A stretch of DNA of 64,000 nucleotides, from positions 12,586,001-12,650,000 of the forward strand of contig NC_073404.1 in the NCBI RefSeq assembly GCF_028641065.1. The letters are read 5' to 3'. Every line of letters begins with the position of its first letter. Within the stretch, counting starts at the first letter, position 1. The stretch comes from Leucoraja erinacea (lineage: Eukaryota). Below are positions 19,666 to 58,002 of this stretch, piece by piece. The notes under the pieces were generated by a model, which saw nothing but the letters and a program-made list of their open reading frames with translations, did not search any database and was not told the DNA's origin. A program made the translations under genes and the position numbers.

Positions 19666-19698
<33 letters not shown>

Positions 19699-31600: not shown

Positions 31601-33695
31601 TGCCCAGGTGAAGTTTATTATCACTTGTATGATTATGGTGAGGAGACACAAGGAACCACAGGCGCTGGAGTCTACAGCAAAACACAAAGTGCTGGAGGAA
31701 CTCAGCAGATCAGGCACCATCTGTGGAGGGAATGGACATACGTTTTGGTTCGGGACCCCTCTTCAAATTCAGACTCGGACTTCTTCATCTGAAGAATGGT
31801 CCCGACCCAAAATATCTTCTGTGCATTCCCTCCACAGATACTGCCTGACCCGCTAAGTTTCTACAGTTTGCAGAAGCAAAGAACTGTAGATGCTGGTTTA
31901 TAACAATTATAGACACAAAGTACTGGAGGAACTTAGTGGATCGGGCAGCATCTCTTGAGTGAAGGAATGGGTGACGTCTCGAGTCACGACCCTTCTTCAG
32001 ACTTGGATAGGTACATGGATATGCAGGGAATGGAGGGACAGGGAGGCAAGGCAGAGATTAGTTTGACGACATCGTGTTCGGCACGGACATTGTTCGCCGA
32101 AGGGCCTGTTCCTGTGCTGTACTGTTCTATGTTCTAAGCTGTGCTCCCCCTGGCAGGCCGTCTTGATCAAGTTGAACCCTCTCTACGTCATGATCCCAGG
32201 TACTCTCAGCACCTCCTTCGCCTTCATGTTGCCAGTGGCCACTCCGCCAAACGCCATCGTCTTCTCCTACGGCCACCTCCGGGTGACCGACATGGTGAGC
32301 GTGGAGGGGGGGGGGGGGGGGGGTGGGGGGGGGGGTTGGAGTGGGGGGGGGGGGGGGGGGAGGCGGTGGGAAGAGGAAGGGGTGGTGATAGTGGGAGGGG
32401 CAGTCGTAGTGGGAGGAGTGGTGGGAGGGGAGGGAGGGGGGTTGTGAATAGGCGGTCAGAGAGGGTGGGGTGTTGGGAGGGGGAGGGGCGGTGGGTTGGC
32501 AGGATACCTCTCTTTACACACCCTTAGAATATGATCAGTTATTGTATCAAACATCACGGGGAGAAGGCAGGAGATTGGGGATGAGAGGGGAAGTAAATCA
32601 GCCATGATCGAATGGTGGAACAGACTCGATGGGCCGAATGGCCTAATTCCGTTCCTGTGTCTCATGGTCTAACACACAACCTCACTGCGCCAGAGACCCA
32701 GGTTTGATCCTGAACTTGGGTGCTGTCTGCGTGGAGTTTGTCCGTTCTCCCAGAGACCGAGCTCCCCCCCCCCCCCCCCCCCCCCCCCCCCATGCATGGG
32801 AGTCTTTGTGGAGCTTTGGCATTGACCATGAGAGAGATTGGGCAGAAAATAGTCCAGGTGAGATGTGAGGAAGGGTTTTCAGACCTAGGAAGATGGTGAA
32901 ATGGATATGGAGAGGCAAAGAGGCGGTCACTGTGGGAGCCGGTTTAAGGTAATGGGCAGAGAAGGAGTAGAGAGATGTGGAGATATTTTCTCACCTGGTG
33001 ACGAGGGCTCTAGACACAGGATGGCGGGAACAGGGGGCGGCCAAAGGGGGACTTGATCATCACTCACAGTATGGAGAATACATCTTGGGCCTGAGAGGAA
33101 CTTTACACAAGGTTATTGCCATGTGCACAAGTGCGGCGAGATGCAGGTGCAATGAAAATCTAGTTTGCAGCAGCGCCACACGCAGTAACAGGCCCAGCAC
33201 CAAACCCGGAGGCACACCACTAGTCACAGGCCTCCAGTCCAAGAAGCAACCTTTGTTAAGCAACCCTCTAATTCCTTCCATGGAGCCAATTTGCTATCCA
33301 TTCAGCTATCTCTCCATCCAAAGCAGCCTACCATGTGGAATCTTGTCTGAAAGCATAAAAGGGTCCATTGGTGAGGTAGTTTGGTTCATGAACCTGATGG
33401 TTGCAGGAAAGTAGCTGATCCTGAACATGGTGGTGTGGGACTTCAGGCTTCCGCCTGGCACCATGACTCGCTGATGGCCAGCTTGGCCAGGCCTAGGAGC
33501 AACCCAACCAAGGATATCTTTAGCCCTAGGGTGGGCAGATGTTAACGAGTATTTACCTTTGTTCAGGTCAAGGCGGGGTTTGTTCTCAACCTGATCGGCG
33601 TGGTGTCGGCCACCGTGGCCATCAACACCTGGGGTCGTGCCATGTTCCATCTCGACACCTTCCCCGCTTGGGCCAACATCTCCAGCTCACTGTGA
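7169..33695 (+). CDS. SLC13A5: SLC13 family Na+-coupled citrate/dicarboxylate transporter (NaCT-like), 12 coding exons, 595 aa
   Basis: Exons 7169-7270, 10272-10400, 11855-11991, 13505-13719, 15278-15479, 16823-16945, 17255-17458, 21729-21844, 22521-22651, 30521-30682, 32157-32294, 33567-33695. All introns GT-AG with consistent phases; total 1788 nt. Motifs [64 protein letters not shown]5 rather than A2 is assigned from adjacency and same orientation as MED31, as in human 17p13. Confidence 0.93.
7280..7497. repeat. Minisatellite (GTGACCCCTGTCCTGACCCC-like unit) in SLC13A5 intron 1
   Basis: About 9 degenerate tandem copies right after the exon-1 donor. Confidence 0.8.
8255..9150 (-). mobile_element. 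CR1-clade LINE 3' fragment
   Basis: Minus-strand ORF2 C-terminus ([13 protein letters not shown]...RTRGHS) followed by a typical 3'UTR. Confidence 0.85.
10495..10780 (-). mobile_element. V-SINE (HE1-like) copy
   Basis: Reverse complement of the SINE head and core, with a (TTTAG)n-like tail. Confidence 0.75.
15520..16170 (-). mobile_element. CR1-clade LINE fragment
   Basis: Minus [40 protein letters not shown] matches the CR1 ORF2 C-terminal region. Confidence 0.85.
16314..16501. other. Assembly gap (N run)
   Basis: Run of N in SLC13A5 intron 5. Confidence 0.99.
19475..19612. other. Assembly gap (N run)
   Basis: Run of N in SLC13A5 intron 7. Confidence 0.99.
19800..20308 (+). pseudogene. 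EIF3G: Processed pseudogene fragment of translation initiation factor eIF3 subunit G
   Basis: Intronless, frameshifted match to eIF3g: [15 protein letters not shown]...GPNVATTTV...[31 protein letters not shown]...[19 protein letters not shown]...[12 protein letters not shown]. Ends early in the RRM; lies in SLC13A5 intron 7. Confidence 0.9.
20720..21355 (-). mobile_element. CR1-clade LINE fragment
   Basis: Minus [31 protein letters not shown], degenerate. Confidence 0.8.
23310..23915 (+). mobile_element. CR1-clade LINE 3' fragment
   Basis: 'attgagtataag...gaagtcatg...catttggagtattgtgtg' plus the 3'UTR shared with other copies. Confidence 0.75.
24410..25448. mobile_element. Non-autonomous AT-rich DNA transposon with TAG...CTA termini and a 7-bp TSD
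   Basis: TIRs TAGCAATGTTACAAAA / TTTTGTAACATACCTA (14/16 match); TGTCAAG duplicated at 24403-24409 and 25449-25455. Confidence 0.85.
25497..28808 (+). mobile_element. Near full-length Rex1/Babar-type LINE (APE endonuclease + RT), inactivated
   Basis: APE ([22 protein letters not shown]) and RT ([41 protein letters not shown]) split over ORFs 25941-26342, 26423-27085 and 27224-28297 by stops and frameshifts. 3' AATAAA plus (CTTTGAA)n tail; GAAAC duplicated at both ends. Confidence 0.92.
30076..30350 (+). mobile_element. V-SINE (HE1-like) copy
   Basis: tggtggcacagcggt...ccgggttcaatcctgac head, conserved core and (CTAAA)n tail. Confidence 0.8.
30774..31582 (-). mobile_element. Non-autonomous retroelement with an (ATTGT)n tail and an internal ~90-bp tandem duplication
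   Basis: CAATA repeats at the left end, duplicated 'gcccc.gcgggcgctag...gccgcgccgggcgat.taaggccc' unit, and CGCTCAC at both flanks (30767-30773, 31583-31589). Confidence 0.6.
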
Positions 33696-39387: not shown

Positions 39388-41960
39388 TCATATCTTGGCC
39401 CTGAACTCAGGCTGCAGGAGATAGGACCAGACGGCGCTGTAGGGATGAACGAGGGGGGTGGGCTTGCCCCCGCTGTCCACGATGGGCTTGCCCTCGTTGG
39501 CCCACTTCACCAGCCCCCCCTCCAGGTTGTAGACCCTGGGGCTGGGGCTGGGGCCGGGACTGCCCTGCGCTCCGGTGGACAGGGCCTGGTCAAGTTGCTG
39601 TGCCAGCCGGGACGAGCGATAACCCACCGTGCAGTAACACACCACGTCCCGGGCAGGCCCGCTGGCTGCGGAGAGAGGGGAGGCAATGAGGGGGTGTCTG
39701 TGGGGGAGGAGGGAGCATCTTCCTGTACCCACTCCCCACGGTCTCGTGACCCCGAACCCCTCAGCACCGTCCAGCCCACACCCTTCCTAATGCATCTCTC
39801 TGCTCCTCATCCACCCTCTCCTGTCCTCACCCCAACCTCAGCACCCACCCCTCCCACCAGTCCTCCTGCTCCTCACACCCACCCTCTCCTCCCTTCCCCC
39901 CCCGTCCACCTCACTCCAACCCTCCTCAGCACCCACCCCTTCACACCCCTACCTCCACAGACCCCCTGCACCCTGCACCCACACCCCAGACTACCTCACC
40001 CCACCACTCCACCCTCCCTGCATATCCCCCCAACTGTCTCGTCCCCTCCCGTCACTCCTTGCCATCAACCCCTTCCCCTCTCACCCCTTGCCCTCTCACC
40101 CCTTGCTCTTTCACCCCTTGCCCTCCACCTGTAGCCTTTCACCCCACCCTCACCGCACCTCCACCACTTTGATTCCCTCCACCCCACCCTGACTCTCCGC
40201 GGGGGAGGGGAGGTGGGGGAAGGTGGAGAGGAAGGGCAGTGAGGGTGGGGCAGAGGCAGCGGGGTGATCGGGGTGACTGACCGAGCCCATGAGGGCCTGG
40301 GGTGGGGGGTGGGGTTTAGGGGGTGTGTGGGGGTCAGGGTTCCCCACCTGTCAGTCCCAGCTCCTTGACCACTGTCCCCACGTCGCTGGTGTCCGGGTCG
40401 ATGCGAACGGCTCCCTCCAGGTGACTGACCTCATACTCGGCCGCACTCCGAACATCCTGTAACCCAGGGGGACGAGGGTTAGAAGATTGGGTTTGGTGCG
40501 TTGTCCCTGCCCCAGGAGTGTGTGATGGGACAGTGTGGAGTCTGACCTGGTTTACCACTGCCCATCAATGGGAAGTCTGAAGAAGTGTCACAACCCGAAA
40601 CACCACCTATCTCTTTTTCCCAGAGATGCTGCCTGACCCGCTGCGTTACTCCAGCACTTTGTGTCTATCTTTGATATAAACTAGCATCTGCATTTGCTTT
40701 TTATTACATCATCTGCTTCCATTGACTGACGGTGGCCAACACTGCCATCTGCTGGAGGGGACAAGCTACTGTCTCCAACATGTCTTCGAGGTCACACAGA
40801 CTGGGCTTGTATTCACTGGATTTTGAAGGATGAGAGGGCATCTTATAGAAACTTATAAAATTATAGAAAGGACTGGACAAGCTAGATGCAGGAAAAATGT
40901 TCCCAGTGTTGGGGGAGTCCAGAACCAGGGGGCACATTCTAAGAATAAAGGGGATGCCATTTAAAACAAATGAGAAAAAACTTTTTAACCCAGAGAGTTG
41001 TGAATTTGTGGAATACTCTGCCACAGAAGGCAGTGGAGGCCAATTCACTGGATGAATTTAAAAGAGAGTTAGATAGAGTCTAGGGGCTGGCGGAATCAAT
41101 CATGGCTGATCTATCTCTCCCTCCTAACCCCATTCTCCTGCCTTCTCCACATAACCTCTGACACCGGAACAAATCGCGAATCTATCTATCTCTGCCTTAA
41201 ATATATCCAGTGACTTTGGCTTCACAGCCTTCTGTGGCAAAGAATTCCACAGATTCACCACTCTGATTAAAGAAATTTCTCCTCATCTCCTACCAAAAAG
41301 ATCATTAATTCTGATCCAATGGTCTTTGAAATCCAGATCCCTCTGACCATTCAAGAAAATACTCCTGTAATGGATACATTGCCATGCCCTTGCCTACTGT
41401 CTATATCACTCAAAGCATCCTCTCAAAGCCCCCACGGTTGTATCATCCGTGCCCTGGGGTCTGACACTGAGATAGGTCCCTCCACTGTACTCTAGTGTTT
41501 GTTCTGCACATCAGTGTCTCCCTCCCCCTCACCATTTCTCCCACCCCTCACCACATCCACCCTTCACCTGCCGATCCTTGTGCTCTGATCCCAGTAGTCT
41601 CCGCTGTCATCATCCACCGGAGACCATCGAGCATTGCCGGGGCCCTGTTCCCAGGAGAGATGGGCATGAGTGGGCAGTGCCATTGACCACAGTCTGGGCC
41701 CCGTTATCGGGAAAATGTGGGCATTGCCATTGACCAGAGATCAGGCCTTGTTACCAAGGAGAAGTGGGTAGATGTGGGAAATGCCATTGATCAGAGTCTG
41801 GACCCTGTTACCCAGGAGAGGTGGCTAGGTTTTGGGCAGTGCCACTCACCAGCAGCAAGACGTGTCCTGGTTTCTGTGCCAGCTGTTGCACCAGGGAGTC
41901 GGAGCCCATATCCTGCACGGACTGAAAGCTGCTGCGGATCCACCAGATGATTGGGTTCAT
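39388..41960 (-). CDS. Single-domain rhodanese/sulfurtransferase-like protein, copy A (165 aa)
   Basis: Exons 41960-41850 (MNPIIWWIRSSF...VLLL), 40456-40348 (DVRSAAEYEVSHLEGAVRIDP) and 39665-39388 (VVCYCTVGYRSSRLA...VYNLEGGLVKWANEGKP...VHPYSAVWSYLL...RAKI*). GT-AG introns, phases 0 and 1, open frame. Has the DVR/E(Y)/SH.GA, catalytic Cys loop and L.GG..W rhodanese motifs. Confidence 0.88.
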
Positions 41961-43097
41961 CCTCGCTGCGGGGAGGCCGCTGGAAGCTGCCGGAACACAG
42001 GAAGGAGGCATCAGGCAAACTGCGGAACGCTCCCGTGGGAGATGTGATGGAGTCATGCAGGTAACGCACAGAGATGTGGTGTAAACACACACAGGGAGCA
42101 GGGGCAGGCCCAGCCAACAGCCGCCTCTGCACAGGTCTATTGGAGACACAGCACAGAAACAGGCCCTTCGGCCCCTTTGAGTCCATGCCCACCATCGATC
42201 ACCCGTTCACATAAGTTCTATGTTATCCCACTTTCTCAACCATTCCTCACACATTCGGGGCAATTAACCTGCAAACCCACCAGCCTTTGGGATGTGCGAG
42301 GAACTCCATCATGGTCACAGGGAGAACATTGAACCCGGGTCTGTGGCGTCTGTGCCACCCTCCTCAGAAACGCTCGGCATCAGGTGTGGATGGACGGGGA
42401 TGTGCAGAAACACCCATCCCACATCTCACTGCCCACAGGTCTCCTCGTGGCCCCCTCTCCTCTCACCCTCACCCCCCCCTCATCCGCAACCTCCCCCCAT
42501 CCTCACCCTCAACCCTCCCTCATCCTCGCCCCTCCCATCACTCTCAACCCCCTCATTCTCAACCTCCCCTCATCCTCGCCCCCCCCCCCCCCCATCACCC
42601 ACACAACCCCCTTCACGCCCACCCCTCTCATCCCCCCTTGTTCTCACTCCTGCCTGGCTCTCAACTCTCTTACTCTCAACCCCCCTCATCATTGCCCCCT
42701 TATCCTCATCCGCCCCTTGTCCATCAACAGCTTCTACCAGCTGTATATTACACCCAAACTCTCCCCTTGGAACTGAACCCCCCCCCCCCCCCCCCCTTCT
42801 CCCCTGAACCCCCCCTGCAATTCTGGTGAGTGTTCAATGTCGGTACCTCTGACGTCACCCAAGAGCAGAGAGACCCAGTCGGTCGTACAGCACAGAAACA
42901 GGCCCTTCGGCCCAACTCCTCCAGGATTGGAGGGCTTGAGTTAAAATGAGTGAAGGAGGCTGAGGAGTGATCTTATGGAGATGTATAAAATGATAACGTG
43001 AATGGTCACAGTCTTTTTTCCCAGGGTACGGTAGTCTCAAACTAAAGGACATAGGTTTAATGTGGGAGGGGAGATTTAAAATGATCCTAAGAGGTAC

Positions 43098-43664
43098 ATA
43101 GAAACATAGATAGAAACATAGAAATTAGGTGCAGGAGTAGGCCATTCGGCCCTTCGAGCCTGCACCGCCATTCAATATGATCATGGCTGATCATCCAACT
43201 CAGTATCCTGTACCTGCCTTCTCTCCATACCCCCTGATCCCCTTAGCCACAAGGGCCACATCTAACTCCCTCTTAAATATAGCCAATGAACTGGCCTCAA
43301 CTACCCTCTGGTGGCAGAGAGTTCCAGAGATTCACCACTCTCTGTGTGAAAAAAGTTCTTCTCATCTCGGTTTTAAAGGATTTCCCCCCTTATCCTTAAG
43401 CTGTGACCCCTTGTCCTGGACTTCCCTAACATCGGGAACAATCTTCCTGCATCTAGCCTGTCCAACCCCTTAAGAATTTTGTAAGTTTCTATAAGATCCC
43501 CTCTCAATCTCCTAAATTCTAGAGAGTATAAACCAAGTCTATCCAGTCTTTCTTCATAAGACAGTCCTGACATCCCAGGAATCAGTCTGGTGAACCGTGG
43601 TGGTGGTGGTGGTGAGGACGGGGGTTGCGCCCGTTCCGCCGACTGACCGCTTCAACTCCGCGCC
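43098..43664 (-). mobile_element. 5'-truncated CR1 LINE fused to a captured copy of MED31 promoter/5'UTR sequence
   Basis: (CATAGAAA)n tail and LINE 3' end to ~43596, then 43595-43667 matches 46246-46313. GGTAC flanks both ends. Confidence 0.75.
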
Positions 43665-44339
43665 GGTACCTTATGCACACAAAGGTGGGTATATAGGGTA
43701 GTTGAGACAGGAACTATAACAGCATTTAACAGATATTTGGACTGGTATATAGATGGGAAAGGCTTAGAGGGATACGGACTGAATGCAGGTCAGGAGTTGG
43801 GCCAAAGGGACTGTCTCCAGAAAGAAAACCCACAAAGTTCCTGGAGTAACTCAGTGGGTCAGGCAATGTTTCTGGAGAATATGGAAAGGCCACATTCCTG
43901 GTCGGGATCCTTCTTCACTCTGAACTAAATTGTCACCTAGTCATGTTCTCCAGAGATGCTGCCTAACCTGCTGAGTTACTCCAGCACTTTGTGTCCTTTT
44001 TTTCGTATAGCAGCAACTGCAGTTCCTTGTGTCTCCACCCATCACATTTACAGATCCAGACTATGGATTCCGCCTGTGGATATGGATATTGGCTGGAGGG
44101 TAAAGTAGGCAGCATGGATCGGGACAGTGATGAGGCTGTCTCCCCAGGCAGTGTGTGGGAGATCATGGCCTAATGCTCTGTTGGATGAAGATCGAGAGGG
44201 AGGTATGACGAGCTGATCCTAATGCACCAGTCCTCCAGCACCGGTCCTCCATTATTGGTCCTCCAGCTCAGGGGGGGGGGGGGGGGGGGAGTGGGGTCAG
44301 CACAAGTCTGCCAGGTCACAGGGGCAACTGGTCCTCCAC

Positions 44340-44690
44340 CATTGAGGGTGGAACTGGTCCTCCAGCCCACTGGGGGGCAGCCTTGATCCTCCAGCCCTGG
44401 TCCTCCAGCCCACTGGGGGGCAGCCTTGATCCTCCAGCCCTGGTCCTCCAGCCCACTGGGGGCAGCCTTGGTCCTCCAGCCTTGGTCCTCCAGCCCTGGT
44501 CCTCCAGCCCACTGGGGAGCAGCCTTGGTCCTCCAGCCCACTGGGTGGCAGCCTTGGTCCTCCAGCCCACTGGGGGGCAGCCTTGGTCCTCCAGCCCTGG
44601 TCCTCCAGCCCACTGGGGGGCCGCCTTGGTCCTCCAGCCCACTGGGGGCAGCCTTGGTCCTCCAGCCCTGGTCCTCCAGCCCACTGGGGG
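44340..44690. repeat. Minisatellite, unit ~CAGCCTTGGTCCTCCAGCCCACTGGGGGG
   Basis: About 10 tandem units with a GGTCCTCCAGCCCT sub-repeat. Confidence 0.9.
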
Positions 44691-44713
44691 GGAGGGGCAG
44701 TTCTGGTTTCTAG

Positions 44714-46189
44714 CAAAGATCTTATAGCGGAGCAAGATAGGCTACTCCTGCTAAATGCAATGGACTGACGTGTAGTACGCTATGGAGGGGGATCATGGGC
44801 ATTTTCCACGCCCATTTTAGCAACCTGAGCCTACCTGACCCGACCCGACTCGCACTGTAATCAATGTTGCGGGGCAACAGTTTGTGTGGGTCAGATTCAT
44901 AAATCTGTCAGTTCAAACTTCTTGTCAAGAATAAAATTTGATTCTGGTAATTGTCTTTTTTAATGTTTTTTAAATCATTTCTTTTTAAATGGCTCACAAG
45001 CCGTGTTTGAGTTGATTTTGTAGTAACCGGAACCGACCGACTCGCAGGGTGATTGACAGGGGGGACTTTTTGTGCGTGATATAGGGTTAGATTCATAATT
45101 CAATTAGTTCATAATTCTGTTGATTCTTGTTAAGGAATAAAATGTTTATAAACACACATACATTAAATTATATAAATGTCTATAGCACACACAATTATAT
45201 TTCTTCTAAACCAATAATGAACTTTATTTCAGACTAGACAAGGGACATTAAATAAGAAACATTGTAAATAAGAAACATTGTCTTGGGGCACTCCCTCTCC
45301 CCGCTGCCCCGGGCCCCGCACTCCTTCTCCCCGCTGCCCCGGGCCCCGCACTCCTTCTCCCCGCACTCTCTCTCCCCGCTGCCCCGGACTCCGCACTCTC
45401 TCCCCGCTGCCCCGGGCCCCGCACTCTCTCTCCCCGCTGCCCCGGGCCCCGCACTCTCTCTCCCCGCTACCCCTCGCTGCCCTGGACCCCGCACTCTCTC
45501 TCCCCGCTGCCCTGCACTCTCTCTCCCCGCACTCTCTCTCCCCGCTGCCCCGGACCCCGCACTCTCTCTCCCCGCTGCCCCGGACCCCGCACACTCTCTC
45601 TCCCCGCTGCCTCGGGCCCCGCACTCTCTCTCCCCGGCCCCGCACTCTCTCTCCCCGCTGCCCCGGGCCCCGCACTCTCTCTCCCCGCTGCCCCGGGCCC
45701 CGCACTCTCTCTCCCCGCTGCCCCGGGCCCCGCACTCTCTCTCCCCGCTGCCCCGGGCCCCGCACTCTCGCTCCCCGCTGCCCCCTACCCCGCCCTCCTT
45801 CTCCCCGCCGCCCCGCCCTCCCTCTCCCCCGCTGCCCCGCACCCCGCCCTCCCTCTCCCCGCTGCACCCCACCCCGCACTCTCTCTCCCCGCTGCCCCGG
45901 ACCCCGCACTCTCTCTCCCCGCTGCCCCGGGGCACTCTCTCTCCCCGCTGCCCCGGGCCCCGCACTCTCTCTCCCCGCTGCCCCGGGCCCCGCACTCTCT
46001 CTCCCCGCTGCGGATCCAATCTCTGGCCGGAAGCAAGAAGGCGGGACCAAGAAAGCGGAGCAAGATGGCGGAACAAGATGGCGGAGTCAGCTTGCTAAAA
46101 TGTGTCCTGTAATTACCCATGAAACCGCCCATGAGCGTACCTCACGTTTGCGTGAGAGTAACCTATCTTGCTCCGCTCTAAGATCTTTG
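44714..46189. mobile_element. Non-autonomous DNA transposon (P- or hAT-like) with ~30-bp TIRs and an 8-bp TSD
   Basis: TIR CAAAGATCTTAKAGCGGAGCAAGATAGG at both ends; GTTTCTAG duplicated at 44706-44713 and 46190-46197. Confidence 0.9.
45290..46010. repeat. GC-rich 30-bp minisatellite (CCCCGCTGCCCCGGGCCCCGCACTCTCTCT)n inside the transposon
   Basis: More than 20 tandem units; the source of the long repetitive ORFs at 45.2-46.2 kb. Confidence 0.92.
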
Positions 46190-46199
46190 GTTTCTAGTC

Positions 46200-46419
46200 C
46201 TCCAGCCCTGGGGGCGGAAGTGGCCTACCTACCGTGCGTCACTTCCCGTGAGTGGTGGTGAGGACGGGGGTTGCGCCCGTTCCGCCGACTGACCGCTTCA
46301 ACTTCTCGCCGGTCTCACGGGCCGCTTCAGGCGGTGGGGGCGGGGGCAGCTCCGGTCGGCAGCACAGTCGGGCGCGGAGGCTGCGGGTCTGGTGGAGGCG
46401 CGAGGCCGGCGGAGGGACG
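46200..46419. promoter_or_regulatory. CpG-island promoter of MED31, possibly bidirectional
   Basis: GGGGCGGAAGTG (Sp/ETS-like) and an inverted CACTTCC ETS core, CpG-dense, directly before the MED31 ATG. Confidence 0.65.
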
Positions 46420-48609
46420 ATGGCCGCGGTCTTCCAGCTCCCTGGAGACAGGGAGGCGGCTTCCGGCCATGTGACCCAGTGCAGGGGATCACGGCGGGGG
46501 GGGGGGGGGAGCTGGTGGGGGGGGGGTGGGGAGCTGTGGGTGGGGGATGGGAGCGGAGCGGGGGGGGGGGGGTGGAGGACGAAGTAGGGGGAAAGCGGGT
46601 AGGACCAAGGGGTTGTTGGAGGAGACGATGGGAGCGGGGGGGGGGGGGGGGGGGAGGGTTGGGTGGAGGGTGGAGTGTGGAAAGAGCGGGGGTGAGAGTG
46701 GGGGATGGAGGAGGAAGTAGGGGGAAAGAGGGTAAGACCACGGGGGGGTTGATGGAGGAGAAGGTGAGAGGATGAAGGGAGCTGGGGGAATAGAGAGTTG
46801 AAACCGGACCAACCGGAGGAAACCCACGTAGTCACAGGGAGAACGTGCAAACGCCACACAGACAGCACCCGAGGTCAGGATTGAGTCCAGGTCTCTGGTG
46901 CAGTAAAGCAGCTCTGCCAGCTGCGCCACTGTGCTATTTCGGATGGCCGATGGTGGATAGGGGAGGGAGAGGGGACGAGTTCATGTCATGGTCCTTCTCC
47001 GCTGCGGACCACGCAGGTTATCATTCACGGTTCCAACATCGTGCGGCCGTCTGTACTTAAACGGCGAGGTAGTTACTCTGTGTGTTTACCCCCCTCTCCC
47101 TGCCCCCAGAGGAACAGGCGAAGCTGCGATTCCAGATGGAGCTGGAGTTTGTTCAGTGTCTGGCGAACCCTAACTACCTAAACTGTGAGTATCACGCTCT
47201 CTCCCCGCAGCTGGGTTGTTTTCTCTGGGCTATCGGAGGCTGAGGGGAGACCTGATTGAATTAAATATAATTATGTGGGGCATAGATAGGGTAGACAATC
47301 AGAACCTTTTATTCAGGTTGGATATATCAAAGATTAGAGGGCATAGCTTTAAGATGAGAGGGGCGAAATGTAAAGTGGAGGTATTACATGAATGGTGGGT
47401 GTCGGAAACGTTATCAGGAGTGGTGGAGATGTCCATTTAAGAGGCTTTTTGATAGGTACATGGATATGCAGGGAATGGAAGGATGTGGATCACGTGCAGT
47501 CAGAGGAGGTTAGATTAACTTGACATCGTGTTTGACGCAGACCTGGGCCGAAGGGCTTGTTCTGTGCTGTACTGTTCTATGAAGGCAGCAGTGGTGTTAG
47601 AGGGAGTGACTTCTATAAAGAATGGGTGGAGAGGGCAGCTGGGCATGAGGGAATGTGGTCACAGTTGATGCCCAGTGAGAGGCAAGGGTACGGGACCAGG
47701 GGTTGTGGCTGAGGGGCTTGGTGCAGCAGGGTTAATGCCTGCAGTCCAATTTTCCTGCCATCTAATAGAGTGATCTTGTTCCGGCCACAGTCTTGGCGCA
47801 GAGGGGTTACTTCAGAGACCGCACGTTTGTCAACTACTTCAAATACCTCCTGTACTGGAAGGAGCCCGAGTACGCCAGGTACCTGAAGTAAGTGCTGTAC
47901 TGCTCTATGTACCGTGTGAGTGCTCATGCGCCGATCTGTGACATTACATTGTCTCCCCCCACACACTCGTCTGTTTCCTACCACCTCTCACTCATTCTCT
48001 CCCCCACCCCCCACCCCCTCCCTCACTCTCTCTTCCTCTCCCTTGCACAATTTCCATTCCACCTCACCCTCTTTCTCACTTACTCTCTCTCACTCCCTCA
48101 TTCTTGACCCCCCATTTCACCTCTTACTCTCTCGCCCATCTCCCGCTCTGTCCCTCACTCTCTCTTTCTGCCTCTCCCTCAGTAACTCTCCCCTTCACTC
48201 ACTCATTCTATCTCCCCTCTCTCCCCATTCTTGATCTTCCCCCCTCTTTCAACACCTCTCACTCATTCACTACCCCATTCACTCTCTCCCCCTCTCTCTT
48301 TCCCTCTCGCTCACTCACAATCATTTTCTCACTCTCCCATCCCTCTCTTCCCCTCTCCCTCGCCCACTCATCCTCTCTCCCTCCTCCTCTTTCACTCTCT
48401 CACTCTCTCTCCCCAGGTACCCCCAGTGTCTCCACATGTTGGAGCTGCTTCAGTACGAGCACTTCCGCAAGGAGCTGGTCAACGCCCAGTGCGCCAAGTT
48501 CATCGATGAGCAGCAGCTGCTGCACTGGCAGCATTACTCCCGCAAGCGTGCGCGGCTGCAGCAGGCCCTGGCTGAGCAGCAGCAGCAGAACAACGCCTCC
48601 AGCAAGTGA
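46420..48609 (+). CDS. MED31: Mediator complex subunit 31, 4 exons
   Basis: Exons 46420-46451 (apparent assembly errors, see findings), 47110-47184, 47791-47887 and 48417-48609: RFQMELEFVQCLANPNYLNFLAQRGYF...YPQCLHMLELLQYEHFRKELVNAQCAKFIDEQQLLHWQHYSRKR...QQQQNNASSK*. Confidence 0.96.
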
Positions 48610-50684
48610 GGGCCCAGCGGGCCAGCCAGCCGGGTCAGCGGGGGGAGGGCACCCACAGCCTGGCCAATGGCTCTGCGGCACATGGACAGAGACAGCATGG
48701 AGCAGGGGCCCCGGGCAGGAGGGCCCCTCCGCGGATATTTATAAACCAGTCGGACTTGTGCAGTGATTGAAGTGCTAGAATCTGCGGTCTGCTTCCTGTG
48801 GCCATCGGCTGGATTCACTGTTGAGAGTCTACACCAATAGGATGAACATCTCTTCAGAACCTGTAGAACTTGTCCGGTTACCCAGTTGGGAACCCAGAAA
48901 TGTTAGTCATTTGTAGACGGAATTGGAGGAGTCAAAAAAGAGTTCCTGGATTTCAGTCTGTTGTGAAAGTCTACATCCAGCAACAACTCACGTCTGCCTG
49001 TCCAGCCCAGTCCTGCACTATCGTTGCATAACATGGATACAGTACTGGTGGGGACGGGTCTGACACTGTAAAACACTGGGATACAGTACTGGTGGGGATG
49101 GGTGTCAGTGTATCAGTGAGGGCCTGTGGTCAGGATTCCCCTGTGACTCCCAGTGCAGCATTGGCAGTGACTGGGCCAGCAGCGGCAGATGTGTTGGGTT
49201 ATTTTGTAAATTATCGCAGATTTGTCTATAAATCATTTGTGATTGATACAATGGGGTAGTTTCCACTCCGAATCTCTGGGAGAAACCCAGTGTGTGTGAA
49301 TTTGCATGTGCACAATCCCAGTATGTTTGTGCACAAACCAGTGGTGGTGAGAATGGGAAGAATAAGGAATCTGACAGAAGCATCTGTCCTGGGAAGAGCT
49401 GGCTCGGTGTCCAGGACTCTGGGACTAGCCTCTTCTCCTCCTCACAGCTCTGACCTGCCATGAATGCTGCCTCAGTGTAGCCACCCTCCTCCATCCCTTT
49501 TACTCAACATCTTGACTGTTGCATTCCCACAAACCTTGTCAACCTGCACTTATTGACCTCCTGTACCACATGTCCCATCTCCCCCAATCTCGCTGCCTTC
49601 TATTTTAAACTCCTCACTTTGTGTTGAAGTCTCTCTGTAGTCTCGCCCCTCCCTCCCTATCGATGGTGGCCTCTCCACCAGCCATGATTCACCTCCCCAT
49701 CTTGCCTCTCACCGATTCATGGTTTTAAGCCACTGAGCCAGTAGGACAGAGCTGAGCTCCATGCACCCTGCCCTCTCCCCAACCTGCCATCTTCCTGGGA
49801 CTTCCAGCTCTTCTGCCAGGTGTGTGGTTCCTTTGCTTTCGACAACTGTCCGGTGAGGGAGTGCAATCATTGATAGAACGATACAGCATGGAACAGGCCC
49901 TTTGGCGAGTCCATGCCGACAGCCGATCACGCTAGATGGGTGCAATATGCTGGAGTAACTCGTGGGTCAGTCTGAAAAAGGGTTCTGACCTGAATTGTGG
50001 CCTATTCCTTTTCTCCATAGATGCTGTCTGGCCCATTGAGTTACCCTAGCACTGTACCTGTCCCGCTAAGTTATTCCAGCATTTTGTGTCTACCTTCAGT
50101 TGAAGCCAGCATCTGCAGTTCCTTCCTACACATTATACCTATCCATGTTCTCCAGAGATTCTGCCTGACCCGTTGAGTTACTCCAGCATTTTGTGCCTGT
50201 CTTGAGTATAAACCAGCATCGGCAGCTCCTTCCTACCCATCCACACTAATTCTATGTTATCCCACTTTCACATCCACTCCATACACTTTAGGGACAACTT
50301 TACAGAGGCCAATCTCCAACCCCGCACATCTTTGGGCTATGAGGTGAAACCAGAGTATTTGGAGGAAACCCGTCCAGTCATAGAGAGAAGGTGCAAACTC
50401 CACACAGGCAGCACCTGAGGTCAGGATCGAACCTGGGTCTCGGGTGCAGTGAGTCACCCACTCTACCCAGCTGTGCTGCCCCTGCTGGAGGCCGAGCAAA
50501 GGAATGGTCAGCTTCCTGTCTAATATTGACCAGCATCACCAAGACTTACCCGTCCAGCCTTTCCACAGATGCTGCTTGACCTGCTGAATTCCTCCAGCAC
50601 TTTGTGGCTTTTCTCAAGATTCCAGCAACTGCGGTTCCTTGTGTCACAGGAGTGATTTATTCTCAGTGCTGTTTGTGTTGTTCT

Positions 50685-50875
50685 GTGCACAATTTAGCTG
50701 CTGAGGCTCATGAATTACAACCGTGGTCGTCGTGCTCCAGCGCTGTACAGGACGTCTGATCTCTTATGTTGCTGTCTCAGCGCCAATAGACTAGAGGCTG
50801 TGTTGTGTCCAAGGTACAAACTCGGGGAGTTAAACTTTAACAACAGGGTTCATTAATAAGTGAACCATTCCTGTA
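50685..50875 (+). promoter_or_regulatory. Conserved non-coding block upstream of rhodanese copy B
   Basis: Alignable with the reverse complement of 58003-58232, upstream of copy C; includes CCAAT. Confidence 0.5.
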
Positions 50876-51024
50876 GTGTCCGGGAGGTTACCCGTGCAAC
50901 TCCTGTCGGAGTGCTGGTACCGAGGACGTTGCCAAACCTAGGTCGAAGAACGCCGGTTTAAAGAACTCTTAATGGAGGTGTGAGCGGTGAAGGGTTTAGG
51001 GAGTTCAGAAGCTGGCAGCCAGCA

Positions 51025-51240
51025 TTGTGTACGAAGGAACTGCAGATACCGGTTTACACCGAAGATAGACACAAAATGCTGGAGTAACCCGGTAGGACAG
51101 GCAGCATCTCTGGATAGAAGGAATGGGTGACTGACTGAAATCTGAAGAAGGGTCTCGACCTGAAACGTCACCCATTCCTTTTCTCCAAAGATGCTGCCTG
51201 TCCCGCTGAGTTAACCCAGCATTTTGTGACCATCTTCAAT
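51025..51240. mobile_element. Palindromic Penelope-type repeat carrying a minimal hammerhead-like core
   Basis: Inverted arms 'gatagacacaaaatgctggagtaac...gcagcatctct' and 'agatgctgcctgtcccgctgagtta...', with centre CTGAAGAAGGGTCTCGACCTGAAACGTC. Many similar copies in the window. Confidence 0.6.
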
Positions 51241-52384
51241 GGGACAATAAAACTCGGTGAAATTTACCACAGGAGGATGCTGTGATGAAAATCCGCTCTC
51301 ATATGTTCAGGTTTTGGTATGCCACATAGAGTGATTCACACCAGCGACTCACTGACAGCGTAGACCAGTCAGGTCAGATGAATCAACCCACGTACTTCCC
51401 TGTAACCCATTCTCACTAGTGCGCCCATTAACTCGCCAACCAACAACACTGGGGCAAGTCACCAGGCACCAAACGGTTGGTGTAGGAAGGAACTGCAGAT
51501 GCGGGTTTACACTGAAGATAGACACAAAATGCCGGAGTAACTCAGCGGGAAACTGGGGCACCGCCGCCATAGAGCGAACGTGCAAACTCCACACAGACAG
51601 TACCAAAGGTCGGGATCAAAGCCGGGGCCCTGGTGCAGCGGGATGGCTGCACCACCACAGGCAATGGCAGGTCACGGCTTCCTCTGCAGCTGCTACCTGT
51701 CTCATCACATCATAAGTGACAGGAGTAGAATTAGGCCATTCGGCCCATACAGTCTGCTCCGCCATCTCCTTGTCTCCTTTAGCCTGGAGCGTCGGGGGGG
51801 GGGGGGGGGGAGAGAAACACTTCTGTTTTATTACTAACTAGAAGTTTCTAAAATCATGAGAAGCAAAGATAGGACAGACAGTCAGAACCTTTCTCCCAGG
51901 GTGGAAATGTCAAAGACTAGATGAGAGTGGTGTTTAAAAGACTTTCAGATAGGCACGCAGAGAGGGGGAGGGGATTCGGTTCACATGCAGGCAGAAGAGA
52001 TTAGTTTAAAAGTGTAGGAAGGAACTGCAGACGCTGGTTTAAACCGGAGATAGACACACACGAAGGTGAGTAACTCAGCGGGACATGCAGCATCTCTGGA
52101 GAGAAGGAATGGGTGACGATTCGACTCGAGACTCGGGTCAGATGAAGCCTCTGGCTTGTGAGCGCTAGGGTGGACATGGGATATTTGTGACTCAGGTCAA
52201 CATTAGAGTGGGCAGTTCTAACACAAAATGCAGGGGCGGAATATCTGACTGTTGGGTCCAGGACTGAGCGTCGGCGGTGGGAGCTGCTGGCCCTCGAGTT
52301 GGTTGGGTTGGCCAAGTGCGGGAGGGTGGGGGTCAGGGCTACGGGTCTAGGATGGGGGCGGGACGTGTCGTGCGGAGCCGCCTC

Positions 52385-53312
52385 ATGGAGCCGGTGAGCG
52401 AGTGGATCCGCTGGCGCTTCCCCGCGGTGCGAAGCCTGGGCCCGGCCGCTCTGGAGCAGCTGCTGCGGGGGGAGCGGGAACGGGAGCGGCTGCTGCTGTT
52501 GGTGAGCGGGGCCGGCAACGCGCCCTGAACAATTTCCCCCCACGGGTCTCCCCTACCTCCCTCCACCGCTGCGTCCCGTCCCAACCCCTGGATCTCATTA
52601 TCTCCCCATCTAATCTCCCCTTTCCCAGCTGTATTCTTTCCACCCCTACTTCTCCCTCTCTTCACTTGCCAAAGTCTCTCGACCACGACCCCCCCCCCCC
52701 ACCCCATACGGGGAGTCAGGGGAGCGACCCCTGTCCGTCATTGCCCCCACCCCCCTGTGGAGGGTTCGCGGGGGAGACCCGCACATCGCGGCCGGTTCTC
52801 CCACTGAGCCGCGGGTCCCGGGAAAGCGGCGCCGCTTCCACCCGGACAACGGGGAGAATTGACCCACGTCTCTCGCCGGGTTACAGGATGTCCGGAGTGC
52901 GGCCGAGTATGAGGTCAGTCACCTGGAGGGAGCCGTTCGCATCGACCCGGACACCAGCGACGTGGGGACGGTGGTCAAGGAGCTGGGACTGACAGGTGGG
53001 GAACCCTGACCCCCACACACCCCGTACCCCTCCCCACTGGTCACCCCGCTGCCTCGACCCGACCCGTCCAACACACACACTGACTCTGAGGGTGGTGAAT
53101 CTGTGGAATTATTTGCCACAGACAGTTGTGGAGGTTTAGTCAATGGGTTTATTTAAGGCTGAGATGGAGTCTTGATTAGTACGGGTGTCAGGGGAGAAGA
53201 CAGGAGAATGGGGTTAGGAAGAAGGGATAGAGCAGCCATGATTGAATGGCATGATGGGCCCAATGAACCAATTCTGCTCCTATCACTTATGAACCCTCAC
53301 CCGCACCCCCCC

Positions 53313-53343
<31 letters not shown>

Positions 53344-53765
53344 ACACTAACCCTCACTATGGGACGGGTCTCACTCACACACTGTGTATCTGAGGGAGAC
53401 ATTGCTCGGCTGATGTCTGTAACTGTATTGGGGTGTGTTTTGTGGGATGTGACGTTACCTGTTCCCTGAGCGCTACGTGACCCGCCTCGCCCACAGACAG
53501 CACTGGCACGGTGGTGATGTGTTACTGCACCGTTGGGTTCCACGCCTGCCGGGTGGCGCAGCGACTGTGCGACTTCTTCGCCGGGGATTCGACGCGGAGT
53601 GACCCGGGCACTGTGGACGTGTACAACCTGGAAGGGGGGCTCCTGCGGTGGGGCAGGGAGAAGAGACTCCTGGTGGACGGCAGGAACAAGCCGAGCAGCC
53701 GCCTCCATCCCTACTGCCAGCTGTGGGAGGAGCTGCTGGAAGCCGACTTCAAACCGCCGGCCTGA
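52385..53765 (+). CDS. Single-domain rhodanese/sulfurtransferase-like protein, copy B (164 aa; in-frame upstream ATG at 52352 possible)
   Basis: Exons 52385-52501 (MEPVSEWIRWRFPAVRSLG...LLLL), 52887-52995 (DVRSAAEYEVSHLEGAVRIDP) and 53497-53765 (VVMCYCTVGFHACRVA...VYNLEGGLLRWGRE...LHPYCQLWEELL...*). GT-AG introns, open frame. Confidence 0.88.
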
Positions 53766-53967
53766 GGAGAGGCAGTCACCTTCGCCCCCTCCACTGGCCT
53801 CCTGCAAGGCCCATCCCCCCCTCTCTCTATCTTCCTCCTCAACCTCCAGCAAGCCCCTCTCCTACCCCCGGCCTCCTGCAACCCCCTCCTCTCCGAGAAT
53901 CCCGCCGCCCCCCCCTCGCTAAAGCCCAGCAGCGCCGCCCCGGAGTCCATCCCCTCCCACAGCCCCC

Positions 53968-53998
<31 letters not shown>

Positions 53999-55067
53999 AC
54001 CACACTCACACTCATCACCCACCCCTCCACACCTACCACTCACCATTCACTCCTCCCACCTGTCCTGACCGAGCCCTACCCCCCACCCCCATCAACCACA
54101 CCAGCCTGGACAGCTTCCCCATCTTACACAGTCAGCATTCATCCATATCCCAAGCATTTCACAATTAAACAGCGTTGAAAGAAAATAAGAATGCTCTTAA
54201 TTCGTGGTTTTTGGCCTCTCGGCTCCTTTGTGGCCTTGAGTCTGGTTCAACGTGGGAGGGCGGATGGGAGTCTAGCAAGTGATAGGTGCCTGGTGATATC
54301 TTCGGGTGAGGTTGGCAAGTCTACCTTTGCTATCCATGAACCAGCTGCCGTGTCACTGGTGGAGGCTTTAATTGACTTGTTGAAGCCCACTGTTGTAAAG
54401 ACACTGTCTCATGGCGGGATTTGAAAATTTGGAGTGAAATTTCCACGAAACTTCCCGATGTAATCTGTGTTTGTTCGCCGAAACCAGGGAGCCTATAAAG
54501 GTTTCGTTTATTGTCGCGTGTACAGAGACACAGTGAAACGCATTTGTCACGCGCTAACTAGTCAGCAGAACGACAGTACATGATTACAATCGAGCCATTA
54601 CACTGTATAGATGCATGATAATGGAATCACGTTTAGTGCAAGGTTAAGCCAGCAAAGTCCGATGGCCTCCAATGGGGTAAATGGTAGTTCAGGACTGCTC
54701 TCCAGTTGTGCTGGGATGATAACAGCCGGGGAGAAACTGTCCTTGAATCTGGATGTGTGCGTATTCACACTTCTAGACCTTTTGCCCGATAGGAGAGGGG
54801 AGAAGAGGGACTCGTCCTTGTTTATTTAACGTGGGACCAGTGTCGTGTGGATTCGTCGCGACCGGGAGGTCAACAAGGAAGGCAACACTGGGCCAAGAGT
54901 CGGCTGTGAGGGGGACACTTGCCGTCACCCAGCGGTCAGTGTGTGTGTGTGTGTGAAACGTCTCCCAGCGAGGATCAGTGCCCTGAGGAGGGCACAGGGA
55001 AATCTAATCATACAAAGAAACAGCATTAGACTCTGAGAGGACACAGTGTGCAGAACAGCGCGGATTG

Positions 55068-55073
55068 TTTTAT
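55068..55073 (-). terminator. Candidate polyadenylation signal of rhodanese copy C
   Basis: AATAAA on the minus strand ~230 nt after the stop at 55303. Confidence 0.5.
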
Positions 55074-55302
55074 TCATTCATATCTTGATTGGTTTTGCAA
55101 CGTGTCAAGGCTTAGATCCTGGTTATACACATACATCTAAGTTACATTCTCCACTTAATTCACTGTTTCAAATTGTCAACTTGCCAGGAAATTACTGCAG
55201 AACAAACAGCGGGGACAAGCGCGGTGTCTCCTCCCAGGGTCAGACCGGGGCCGGAGCACGGGGTCAGTCCGAGGGACCCAGAGTTAGAACGAGAGCTCGG
55301 GG

Positions 55303-57831
55303 TCAGACAGGTGCCCGGTACTGGGGCTCCAGCAGCTGAGCCCATACCTTGTTGTAGGGGTGGACGAGAGCGGTTGGCTGCCCCCCACTGTCCACCATGG
55401 GCTTGCCGTCGTTGGCCCAACTCACCAGCCCCCCTTGCAGGCTGTAGACCCTGGTCGAGCCGCGCCCCGGTGGCAGCGCCTTGTCCAGCCTCTCCGCCAT
55501 CTCCGAGGCGTGGTAACCAGCCGTGCAGTAGCAAACCACCTCCATCTCCTCCGAGCCACCTGCAACAAGACCCCGGCGTTAGAACAGGGAGAGTGTAGGG
55601 CTAGATGTCATAACGTCAGAATTAAAGGACGTACTTTCAGGAAAAAGATGAGAACGAATTTATTTCGCCAACGAGTGGTGAATGTGGAAATATTTGCCAC
55701 AGAAGGCTGTGGAGGCCAGGTCAATTGATATTTTTAAGGCAGAGATAGATTTTGATTAGTACGGGTGTCAGGGGTTATGGGGAGAAGGCAGGAAAATGTG
55801 GTTAGGAGGGAGAGATTGATCACCCATGGTTGAATGGCGGAGTAGACTTCATTCATTATAATTCTGACGTACTTTCATGATGGACAATGCGAATACAATC
55901 AGCCACGGTGCTGGTCTGCTACGCCGCTGCATCACAGAGCTAGAGACCCCGTTTCCATCGTGCCCTCAGGTGCCGTCTGTGTGGAGTTTGCACGTTCTCC
56001 CTGTGACCACCTGGGTTTTCTCCGGGTACTCCGGTTTCCCCCCACATCTCAAAGACGTGCGGGGTTAGTAGGTTAATTGGCCTCTGTAAATTGTCCCCAG
56101 TTTGTAAGGAACGGTAAAACTAGTGTGAGTCGGTGGTTTGGTGTGGACTTGGTGGGCCGAAGGGCCTGTTTTCATGCTATATCTTTCAATCTTTTCACGT
56201 TCCTTCACTTTAGAGATGCAACGCAGAAACAGGGGTGATGTCTGTGTGGAGTTTGCACGACCTCTCTGTGACCACATGGATTTCCTCCCACATCCCAAAG
56301 ATGTGCGTTGATTGACCCTCTGTAAGTTGCCCCCTGATGTGTAGGATGTGGATGAAGCAAGTAGGATAACATAGAACTAGTGATCGATGGTCGGTATGAA
56401 CACGGTGGGCCCAGGGGCTTGTTCCCTAAAGTAATCTGTAAAGTCAACTAAACACGGTACTGTGCAGGTGGATTTGGGAATTTACATGGATAAGAGTGCT
56501 GGCGTATTATATATACACTAGACAATAGGTGCAGGAATAGGCCATTCGGCCCTTCGAGCCAGCACCACCATTCAATGTTATCATGGGTGATCATCCCCAA
56601 TCACTACCCCGTTCCTGCCTCCTCCCCATATCCCATGACTCCGCTATCTTTAAGAGCCCTATCTAGCTCTCTCTTGAAAGTATCCAGAGAACCGGCCTCT
56701 GAGGCAGAGAATTCCACAGAAATAAATTATCATTAATTTTTTCCCAAATTATATATGTTGTATTTAGAAAATGTAACGGTGTTATAAAACGTGACATCCA
56801 GATTATTCTTCCGAGACGGCGTTGGAAGGCGAAGGGGAACGCCAGCAGTTGTGAGCCGTCCACAAACACGTCCTCGGTAAGAGCCCGACAGATCTACAGG
56901 GAAAATAAGGGATGCCGACCTCGGCGCACGGAAACAGAGGGGCGGCTGCATGGGGGGATTGCAGTGGTCGCGGTTGGTGGAGCGGGGGCGTTGGGAGCAG
57001 AAAGTCGATCGGATCATCGCTAAAGAACCTCGTGCTGTCTTGTTCTGTCTCCACCCCCGGTTCCTGTGCTGTCTTGTTCAATGACTCGAGCAGGTAACAT
57101 TAAGTTCTGGGAATGTATCTGGGTCAGTCTGGTGTACAGGCAGCAGACAGACCCATTGGCCGTGATTGCCTTCAATCAATGCGTCTGTTTCGTGGAGTTA
57201 GAGTCAGTGTGCGTGTGTGACCCGTCCCCCAGTGAGGGTCAGTGTGTGTGGAATGGGGTCGAGGCAGCGGGGTAACCGAGCCCCTGGAAGGTGGGATTCG
57301 CGGTTCCCCACCTGTCAGTTCCTGGACCACCGTCCCCACGTCGTTGGTGTCCGGGTCGATGCGAACGGCTCCCTCCAGGTGACTGACCTCATACTCGGCC
57401 GCACTCCGGACGTCCTGTAAGCCGAGAGGGACGAGTGTCATTACTCCCTGTCGTCCGGGCGGCGGCGTCTCCCTGGGACCCGTGCTCTCCCCGGGTCTGC
57501 CATGCCCTCCCGCACCCGCGGCTCGGTGGGTCCAAAGAACAGGGGGGTGGAGACTGACCCATGGGCGGGGGGAGACGGGGGAAAGGGGTTGTTCTCCGTG
57601 GATGTCCCAGGACTGCCTACTCCCTCCACCCCCCATCCCGAGCCTACCCTTGCCGGCGTAGGACGGTGAAGTTCCGGGGAACCCACTCCCCGGCTGCCCC
57701 TCGGTCCTGGCCCCGCTCACCAACAGCAGCAGCCGCTCCCGCTCCCCCCGCAGCCGCTGCTCCAGAGCGGCCGGGCCCAGGCTCCGCACCGCGGGGAAAC
57801 GCCAGCGGATCCACTCGCTCACCGGCTCCAT
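55303..57831 (-). CDS. Single-domain rhodanese/sulfurtransferase-like protein, copy C (156 aa)
   Basis: Exons 57831-57721, 57414-57312 and 55559-55303 (VVCYCTAGYHASEMA...VYSLQGGLVSWANDGKPMVDSGGQPTALVHPYNKVWAQLL...*). Same intron positions and phases as copies A and B. Confidence 0.88.
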
Positions 57832-58002
57832 GAGGCTGCTCCTCCCCCGGGACCGGGCCGCCCCCGCCCCTTCACGTGTACATGTGTGTGTGAAACGCCT
57901 CCTGTGTTGTCGTGTGTGTATTCTACATAGAACGTGCTACGTAAACGCGGCCGCCTCTGCATCAGCACCCTGGCAGGGTCTGCACTGACCCGACCCGACC
58001 CT

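Follow-up and report, generated by a model that had tools for sequence, protein, structure and literature searches.

We analysed a window of 64,000 nucleotides (nt) from the genome of the skate Leucoraja erinacea (NCBI RefSeq assembly GCF_028641065.1, contig NC_073404.1, positions 12,586,001 to 12,650,000 of the forward strand), in which three rhodanese genes, here named A, B and C, are arranged around MED31. Positions given below are those of the window. The three genes are probably intact paralogs of an old subfamily of single-domain rhodaneses that is present in animals, a choanoflagellate and many bacteria. Their products are likely to be cytosolic cysteine-persulfide sulfurtransferases. 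Gene conversion is the likely reason why a common exon has stayed alike among them, with the catalytic exon remaining specific to each paralog.

Each gene was assembled by coordinate from three exons and encodes a protein of 165 (A), 164 (B) or 156 (C) amino acids. No in-frame stop codon was present in any of the three genes, all six introns had GT-AG borders, and the intron phases were 0 and 1 in each gene. Gene A is located on the minus strand, with exon 1 at 41850..41960 (37 codons, with a phase-0 GT donor), exon 2 at 40348..40456 and exon 3 at 39388..39665. Gene B is on the plus strand, with exons at 52385..52501, 52887..52995 and 53497..53765 and a candidate poly(A) signal, ATTAAA, at 54164. 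The assembled model of gene C, on the minus strand, has exon 1 at 57721..57831, exon 2 at 57312..57414, which is 6 nt shorter than exon 2 of A and B, and exon 3 at 55303..55559, with a candidate poly(A) signal, AATAAA, at 55074. These models exactly reproduced those of a preliminary description of the same DNA, in which three intact three-exon reading frames with identical intron positions had been reported to flank MED31. A search of the skate genome with exon 3 of A matched the copies in A, B and C only. A separate search of the genome for Pfam rhodanese domains matched 14 other places and missed the A/B/C cluster, so it is no census of skate rhodaneses.

The Pfam Rhodanese model (cut-off 22.2 bits) matched exon 3 of A with 22.8 bits, exon 2 of B with 20.9 bits and exon 3 of B with 13 bits, and gave no match to exon 3 of C alone; PF00581 was present in all full-length relatives. 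The DxR motif, which is carried by exon 2 in gene A, and the catalytic Cys were found in all three proteins. Exon 3 of A encodes the loop CTVGYR (Cys85 to Arg90) and an HPY...W tail. Among 148 aligned relatives, Asp38, Arg40, Glu44, Cys85, Gly88 and Trp128 were invariant, a Cys-x4-Arg loop was present in 135 and the tail motif HP[YF]xxxW in 118, which upholds the earlier reading of the proteins as single-domain rhodaneses with a distinctive tail. An AlphaFold model was obtained with a predicted local distance difference test score (pLDDT) of 95.5 and a predicted template modelling score (pTM) of 0.90. In a fold search it matched rhodanese folds at Z scores of 13-14, the top match being a Leishmania As/Sb reductase (Z 14.0) that was tied with sulfurtransferases and CDC25A. 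The tail was scarcely covered by the fold matches, and we make no claim of a new fold for the predicted structure.

The best NCBIfam model was NF045521 ('rhoda_near_glyco'), about 17 orders of magnitude ahead; the match covered positions 22-138 of its 144 and took in the tail that both groups share. The proteins P0001, P0039, P0012 and P0019 scored 83-90 bits, below its cut-off of 145 bits, and the vertebrate proteins appear to be a sister group of NF045521 rather than members. The bacterial relatives mostly have a hydrophobic N-terminus and sometimes have arsenosugar-type neighbours. When the family profile was compared with human proteins, the expect values (E) were 5.5e-4 for TSTD1 (6bev), 2.8e-6 for MOCS3 and 1.3e-6 for CDC25A, whereas bacterial matches reached 1e-39 or better; the closer relation to a bacterial family than to these human proteins, as first proposed, was thus confirmed. 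TSTD1, a grouping with which had been considered at the outset, was not the closest relative (20% identity, Z 11.1, rank 22); it is not among the rows of the tree described below. TSTD3 was not among the listed homology matches, and no direct comparison with it was made. Models of TrhO (26-34 bits against a cut-off of 170) and of MoeB (25-32 bits against 449-647) scored far below their thresholds, and the proteins of 156-165 amino acids lack the partner domain of TrhO and MoeB.

The skate proteins share one rhodanese domain, the DxR motif and a six-residue Cys loop with yeast RDL1 and RDL2 (3d1p, 6k6r), with TSTD1 and with GlpE and PspE of E. coli. They differ from this group in that only 14-25% of residues were identical in structural alignment, and profile E values ranged from 1e-11 (RDL1) to 5e-4 (TSTD1), as against 1e-33 or better for true members of the subfamily. 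The N-terminal helix and the tail of the skate family fell outside the parts that were matched to single-domain sulfurtransferases. CDC25 and ACR2 (1c25, Leishmania 2j6p) are alike in fold (Z 13.3-14.0), but they have a Cx5R loop in place of Cx4R or Cx4H and are 15-18% identical. According to the accessible part of a review of human rhodaneses, eight are active and TSTD1 is the sole single-domain protein; there, a DxR motif with a six-residue Cx4R/T loop marks the sulfurtransferase type and a seven-residue Cx5R loop the CDC25 type (PMC10135228). The loop had six residues in A, B and C. The Cx4R/T pattern was found in gene A and was absent from B (CTVGFH) and C (CTAGYH).

In yeast RDL2, whose loop ends in Arg as that of gene A does, the R111I substitution removed about 90% of thiosulfate:cyanide activity and left no persulfide; the loop-ending Arg is required for both thiosulfate cleavage and persulfide formation, as stated in the portion of the report available to us (PMC8533005). 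We propose that Cys85 would take a sulfane sulfur from a donor and hand it to a thiol or to a cyanide-type acceptor. The protein of gene A, which retains the Arg needed for thiosulfate cleavage in RDL2, would use thiosulfate and is likely a cytosolic thiosulfate sulfurtransferase. The proteins of B and C, which end the loop in His (or, in other species, Gln or Tyr), would favour a different sulfur donor, for instance a persulfide. A hydrophobic N-terminal stretch was found in 67 of 80 bacterial open reading frames (ORFs) as against none of 32 choanozoan proteins, 10 of which had N-termini too short to score. Without such a stretch, the animal members are likely to be cytosolic.

The divergence of the three skate genes was distributed very unevenly over their exons. 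In the window, exon 2 was 95-98% identical at the DNA level in all three pairs (98% between A and B, 95% between A and C) and exon 1 was 97% identical between B and C, whereas exon 3 was 64-72% identical. The homogenised tracts end 10-45 nt into the introns. A tract of 160 nt common to A and B (40306..40465) was 96% identical in blastn to the inverted sequence at 52878-53035; it consists of exon 2 with about 10 nt of upstream and about 40 nt of downstream intron. The exon 1 tract common to B and C extends over 52374-52513 and 57709-57842. Exon 2 had synonymous differences of 0.08-0.16, and exon 3 of 0.47-0.53.

The comparison was extended to 30 predicted proteins from the 13 chondrichthyan taxa for which two or more paralogs were available. 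Exon 2 had its nearest relative in a paralog of the same species in 27 of 30 cases, ties included; the corresponding figures were 8 of 29 for exon 1 and none of 30 for exon 3. P0060 and P0063 were assigned to A automatically by a narrow margin, which affects group means and not these nearest-neighbour counts; for the loop-end counts and the residue identities below, paralog types were set by hand. At residues 61-72, paralogs of the same species were 85-92% identical in contrast to 45-52% for orthologs. In the chimaera the three exon 2 sequences were visibly different, and B and C shared exon 1. Residues 131-142 of exon 3 showed some exchange between A and C (0.79 against 0.61). The loop ended in Arg in 12 of 12 A proteins, in His in 9 of 9 C proteins and in His, Gln or Tyr in 8 of 8 B proteins, so that neither Arg nor Thr occurred in any of the 17 B and C rows. 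The results suggest that gene conversion has been at work for a long time on particular exons, around a catalytic exon that has diverged. Different catalytic exons are likely to mark distinct activities, and we infer that the loop is under selection.

The near-identity of exon 2 could also have arisen without conversion, if purifying selection is strong, if the copies were duplicated recently and independently, or if assembly or annotation was faulty, and the cross-species data are indeed predicted proteins. A protein of the Logan collection, P0053 (5 cluster members), joins exon 1 of A to exons 2-3 of C, an order that is impossible by cis-splicing at this locus; it probably arose as an assembly chimera by way of the common exon and illustrates that assemblers can mix copies, although a rearranged allele, formed by inversion between the inverted near-identical exon copies, is possible. 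However, orthologs are only about 50% identical at residues 61-72, so purifying selection is weak there and does not explain the identity of paralogs. Synonymous sites and flanking intron bases were homogenised as well, and exon 3 never grouped by species. In the window, the copies occupy separate places and show several differences, the 6-nt gap in C among them, and the same pattern was found in 12 elasmobranch taxa with separate assemblies. We consider these alternatives very improbable. Chimaeras and sharks split about 400 million years ago. Under gene conversion, the triplication is likely older than that split, and exon 2 of all three genes and exon 1 of B and C would have been homogenised repeatedly in each lineage, with the catalytic exon outside the tracts.

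Region-restricted conversion has been described in other duplicates. In the accessible parts of the respective papers, the red and green opsins of primates have homogenised segments beside a distinct, diverged exon (PMC3924837), and conversion between mammalian duplicates has persisted for 100 million years (PMC2720389). The skate genes resemble the opsins, BMP8A/B, DDX19A/B and TUBG1/2 in having homogenised parts beside a diverged functional exon. They differ in that three genes are involved, the tracts are limited to single small exons and the introns cannot be aligned. The pattern spans sharks and rays, and would outlast the mammalian cases of 100 million years if a date of about 400 million years holds.

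Relatives were collected by homology searches (22 matches in one; the best 120 of 1410 in another; the best 120 of 200 from 8000 scored candidates in a third), a HMMER scan (the best 150 matches listed, with E values of 1e-30 or lower for 268 in all) and 28 cluster look-ups. Sharks, rays and a chimaera had two or three members each. Other vertebrate members came from the coelacanth, newts, a caecilian, turtles, a crocodile, ratites, a tinamou, lizards, snakes and the platypus. Invertebrate members came from Ciona, a crinoid, molluscs, Lingula, Owenia, a flatworm, a barnacle, a lobster, a sea spider, corals and the sponge Oscarella, and one member was found in the choanoflagellate Hartaetosiga. 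None of the named matches listed came from therian mammals, neognath birds, ray-finned fish, frogs, insects or nematodes, which is not proof of absence. A word filter missed the caecilian protein in one search, and it was found in two others, so groups without a match are not proven losses; most cluster members were unseen. In the ESM Atlas the top cluster was a eukaryotic rhodanese cluster of 327 members (0.96) and the second was mostly Chlorophyta where recorded (0.92), which we regard as a lead only. RefSeq already carries many members as predictions under misleading automatic names. Orthologs of the three genes, in sharks, rays and reptiles among others, bear the labels 'sulfurtransferase Alvin_2599-like', 'tRNA uridine(34) hydroxylase-like', 'MOCS3-like' and 'YqhL-like', which are inconsistent best-match labels. 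The first of these refers to an Allochromatium protein, and the literature listed for it dealt with purple sulfur bacteria throughout. The skate proteins, first suggested to form a possibly undescribed module of chondrichthyans, belong to a family that is not confined to that group. In the literature we found no paper on this rhodanese subfamily, nor one on a rhodanese with gene loss in sharks; most subscription journals lay outside this search.

An unrooted tree was constructed from 53 named rows, after unnamed rows and 18 redundant named rows had been dropped from 109. A starred branch (98/94) set 22 bacterial rows apart from the other 31, which were the 30 choanozoan rows and P0352, and the 12 vertebrate rows formed a starred clade (100/99) inside the choanozoan side. 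A single choanozoan clade was not rejected by the approximately unbiased (AU) test (p-AU 0.27). Isoform breakpoints were found at the same Asp as the acceptor of intron 1 in skate, both in turtle (P0026, P0031, P0033) and in chiton (P0151 against P0305), which is indirect evidence suggesting that intron 1 is old. In its strong form, the preliminary description proposed either a module restricted to chondrichthyans or a bacterial gene that was acquired by vertebrates and then gained introns. The bacterial relatives are 35-45% identical and have the tail in common; against both versions stand the members in tetrapods, invertebrate phyla, the sponge and the choanoflagellate, the position of the vertebrates on the choanozoan side and the intron position shared by turtle and chiton. 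We consider this proposal extremely improbable. Judged from the sequences, there was no transfer from bacteria into vertebrates; the choanozoan ancestor most likely already carried the gene, and it was then lost many times. An ancient family lost in other vertebrates had also been suggested, which is nearer to the findings, although the pattern of loss is patchy and the gene persists in many tetrapods. Bony vertebrates would have inherited one copy, followed by independent losses in several groups. An earlier transfer from bacteria into the choanozoan ancestor, or into a prior eukaryotic one, is possible.

Predicted and assembled transcripts were compared with the gene models. The spliced protein of gene A, including exon 1, was identical to P0040 and also to the C-terminal 165 residues of the RefSeq protein P0037 from Leucoraja erinacea. 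The longest Logan contig of P0040 had 1727 nt, as against the genomic span of 2573 nt of gene A, which indicates that gene A is transcribed and spliced in a skate. Gene C has a RefSeq ortholog in Rhinoraja (P0058) that is 90% identical. A search of sequencing runs with positions 53480-55600 listed no RNA data set, which speaks neither for nor against transcription of B and C. In the RefSeq models P0037 and P0038, from two skates, an exon on the minus strand at 53459..53708, antisense to exon 3 of B, was joined to gene A at 41986. The join is a predicted, annotation-level canonical GT-AG intron of 11,472 nt that skips exons 1-2 of B and MED31. The overlap of these models with B may be the reason why B is unannotated in skates.

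Several points weigh against the reading of A, B and C as intact, long-converted sulfurtransferase paralogs of an old subfamily. The tied fold matches do not fix the chemistry as that of a sulfurtransferase or of a phosphatase or reductase. No subfamily member with a solved structure or measured activity was found in the searches, and among PDB sequences the best match was a protein from Francisella without an assigned role. It may be early divergence alone, with no selection on the loop, that has spared exon 3 from conversion, and the cross-species evidence for conversion comes from predicted proteins rather than DNA. The tree lacks an outgroup, and bootstrap support had not fully stabilised. 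P0352, from a metagenome-assembled genome of Acidobacteriota and with a signal-like N-terminus, groups on the animal side, which may be a long-branch effect or mark a close bacterial sister. As to gene B, the skate protein was absent from all homology matches listed (best identity 63%), and its branch in the tree was longer than that of the sawfish ortholog (0.35 against 0.11). The ratios of nonsynonymous to synonymous substitution rates (dN/dS) in exon 3 were highest in the pairs with B (0.56 for A-B and 0.74 for B-C, compared with 0.31 for A-C).

The long branch, the high ratios, the lack of a skate B protein among the matches listed and the antisense use of exon 3 of B in two skate models could all be accommodated if only A and C work in skate and B is silent or drifting, with a reading frame that conversion has helped to preserve and an antisense transcript that crosses it and continues into A. 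However, the reading frame, splice sites, catalytic Cys and tail motif of B are intact, its 5' end is rich in CpG (observed/expected 0.76 against 0.49 for the window) and it has the candidate poly(A) signal. Intact B orthologs were found in 7 other taxa, and the gap in annotation may stem from the overlapping A model. A silent gene B is unlikely on this evidence, and we retain the reading of three intact paralogs.

The genomic context of the bacterial relatives was surveyed at 80 loci, with up to 6 kb on each side, many of them shorter, and with neighbours labelled per cluster from single representatives. Genes of ArsM-like, ArsS-like radical SAM, TIGR04282, TIGR04283-like or DUF547 type were present at 15 of the 80 loci, and at 30 when the GT2/GT87 pair was included; such arsenosugar-type neighbours occurred in Sphingomonadales, cyanobacteria, Methylocystis and others. 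It is conceivable that the subfamily handles organoarsenic compounds, by sulfurating methylated arsenicals or arsenosugars or by reducing As(V), as an accessory of arsenosugar pathways in bacteria and on dietary arsenic in mostly aquatic animals. The neighbours, the name of the closest NCBIfam model, the DUF547 matches in the skate genome and the As/Sb reductase as top, though tied, fold match are consistent with this. On the other side, 50 of the 80 loci had no such neighbour, and 7 of the 15 belong to close relatives in Sphingomonadaceae and Parasphingorhabdus. The only unselected genome with the rhodanese among 101 Sphingomonadales (G047) had no TIGR04283-like match. The loop is Cx4R and not the Cx5R of CDC25-type arsenate reductases, and the bacterial members look exported but the animal members do not. 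Exon-wise searches of the skate genome, which are weak evidence for absence, yielded nothing for TIGR04283, TIGR04282 and TIGR04167 (ArsS), and methyltransferase matches in this genome were weak and under the cut-off. An arsenic function is quite unlikely in our view.

An obligate tie of the rhodanese to arsenosugar clusters was not supported: of the 101 Sphingomonadales, 2 had the rhodanese and 31 a TIGR04283-like match, and the two sets overlapped in the starting genome only. The DUF547 matches in skate, five in number, lie on another contig at 41555746-41608064 in two groups, probably two tandem genes. No publication was found that links a rhodanese with arsenosugars, or arsenosugars with a gene cluster of ArsS and a glycosyltransferase. 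A broader form of the arsenic proposal takes the animal genes as one arm of an unrecognised arsenic-sulfur chemistry, the rhodanese being attached to arsenosugar clusters in bacteria. Aquatic animals would have kept the rhodanese from a unicellular ancestor to convert methylated arsenicals into thio-forms, chondrichthyans would have tripled it and held three loops apart for about 400 million years against exon-wise conversion, and therians, neognaths and ray-finned fish would have dropped it. We give this form only a slim chance. If the arsenic link were true, it would provide a function for a conserved bacterial accessory gene and for the animal gene together.

MED31 lies between A and B on the plus strand. 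Its exons 2-4 are at 47110-47184, 47791-47887 and about 48417-48609, and PF05669 was found on all three. A candidate exon 1 at 46420-46451 is without a GT donor in the required phase. About 60 nt upstream of it (near 46250-46310) recur at about 43596-43670. GC-rich and AT-rich minisatellites at 44355-44711, 45284-46070 and 58669-58992 flank MED31 and gene C. Upstream and outside the finding, exons of an SLC13-family transporter lie at 11693..32444 on the plus strand (PF00939 on 5 of 150 ORFs scanned). The same late exons were found just before the window (L088:326-856 and 3656-4030) and within it, as two tandem SLC13-family genes. A fragment similar to eIF3g (PF12353, E 5e-11) at 19877-20377 on the plus strand, inside the SLC13 gene, is probably a piece of a processed pseudogene, and reverse-transcriptase ORF fragments of the long interspersed nuclear element (LINE) type were found on the plus strand at 27191-28294 and 38029-38445.

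The gene downstream of C was not identified among the 57 of 204 ORFs scanned from 50 kb of flanking DNA. In the accessible parts of two papers, MED31, SLC13A5 and TXNDC17 are named as neighbours in chicken and mouse (PMC5655602, PMC6433893). In skate, TXNDC17 (minus strand) and KIAA0753 (plus strand) are head to head on the same contig at 27586318-27614846, 15 Mb from MED31. The displacement of TXNDC17 relative to the order in chicken and mouse likely reflects a rearrangement breakpoint near gene C. At this distance TXNDC17 was ruled out as an adjacent functional partner in skate. Human C17orf100, considered for its position as a possible remnant of gene A, did not figure in the papers listed by a literature search.

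The new elements of this locus appear to be a triplication in chondrichthyans with exon-restricted concerted evolution and a retuned active-site loop, within an ancient subfamily that is apparently unstudied. The conversion is an unusually deep and clean case of a process limited to single exons. The subfamily is a second group of single-domain rhodaneses in animals. Our searches turned up no member in placental mammals or ray-finned fish, which would account for the neglect and mislabelling of the subfamily. The trio of genes in sharks and their relatives may serve as a natural experiment, in which the same scaffold and one common exon are combined with three loops, including a change from Arg to His at the position which in RDL2 governs the use of thiosulfate, and would test how the loop determines the choice of sulfur donor.

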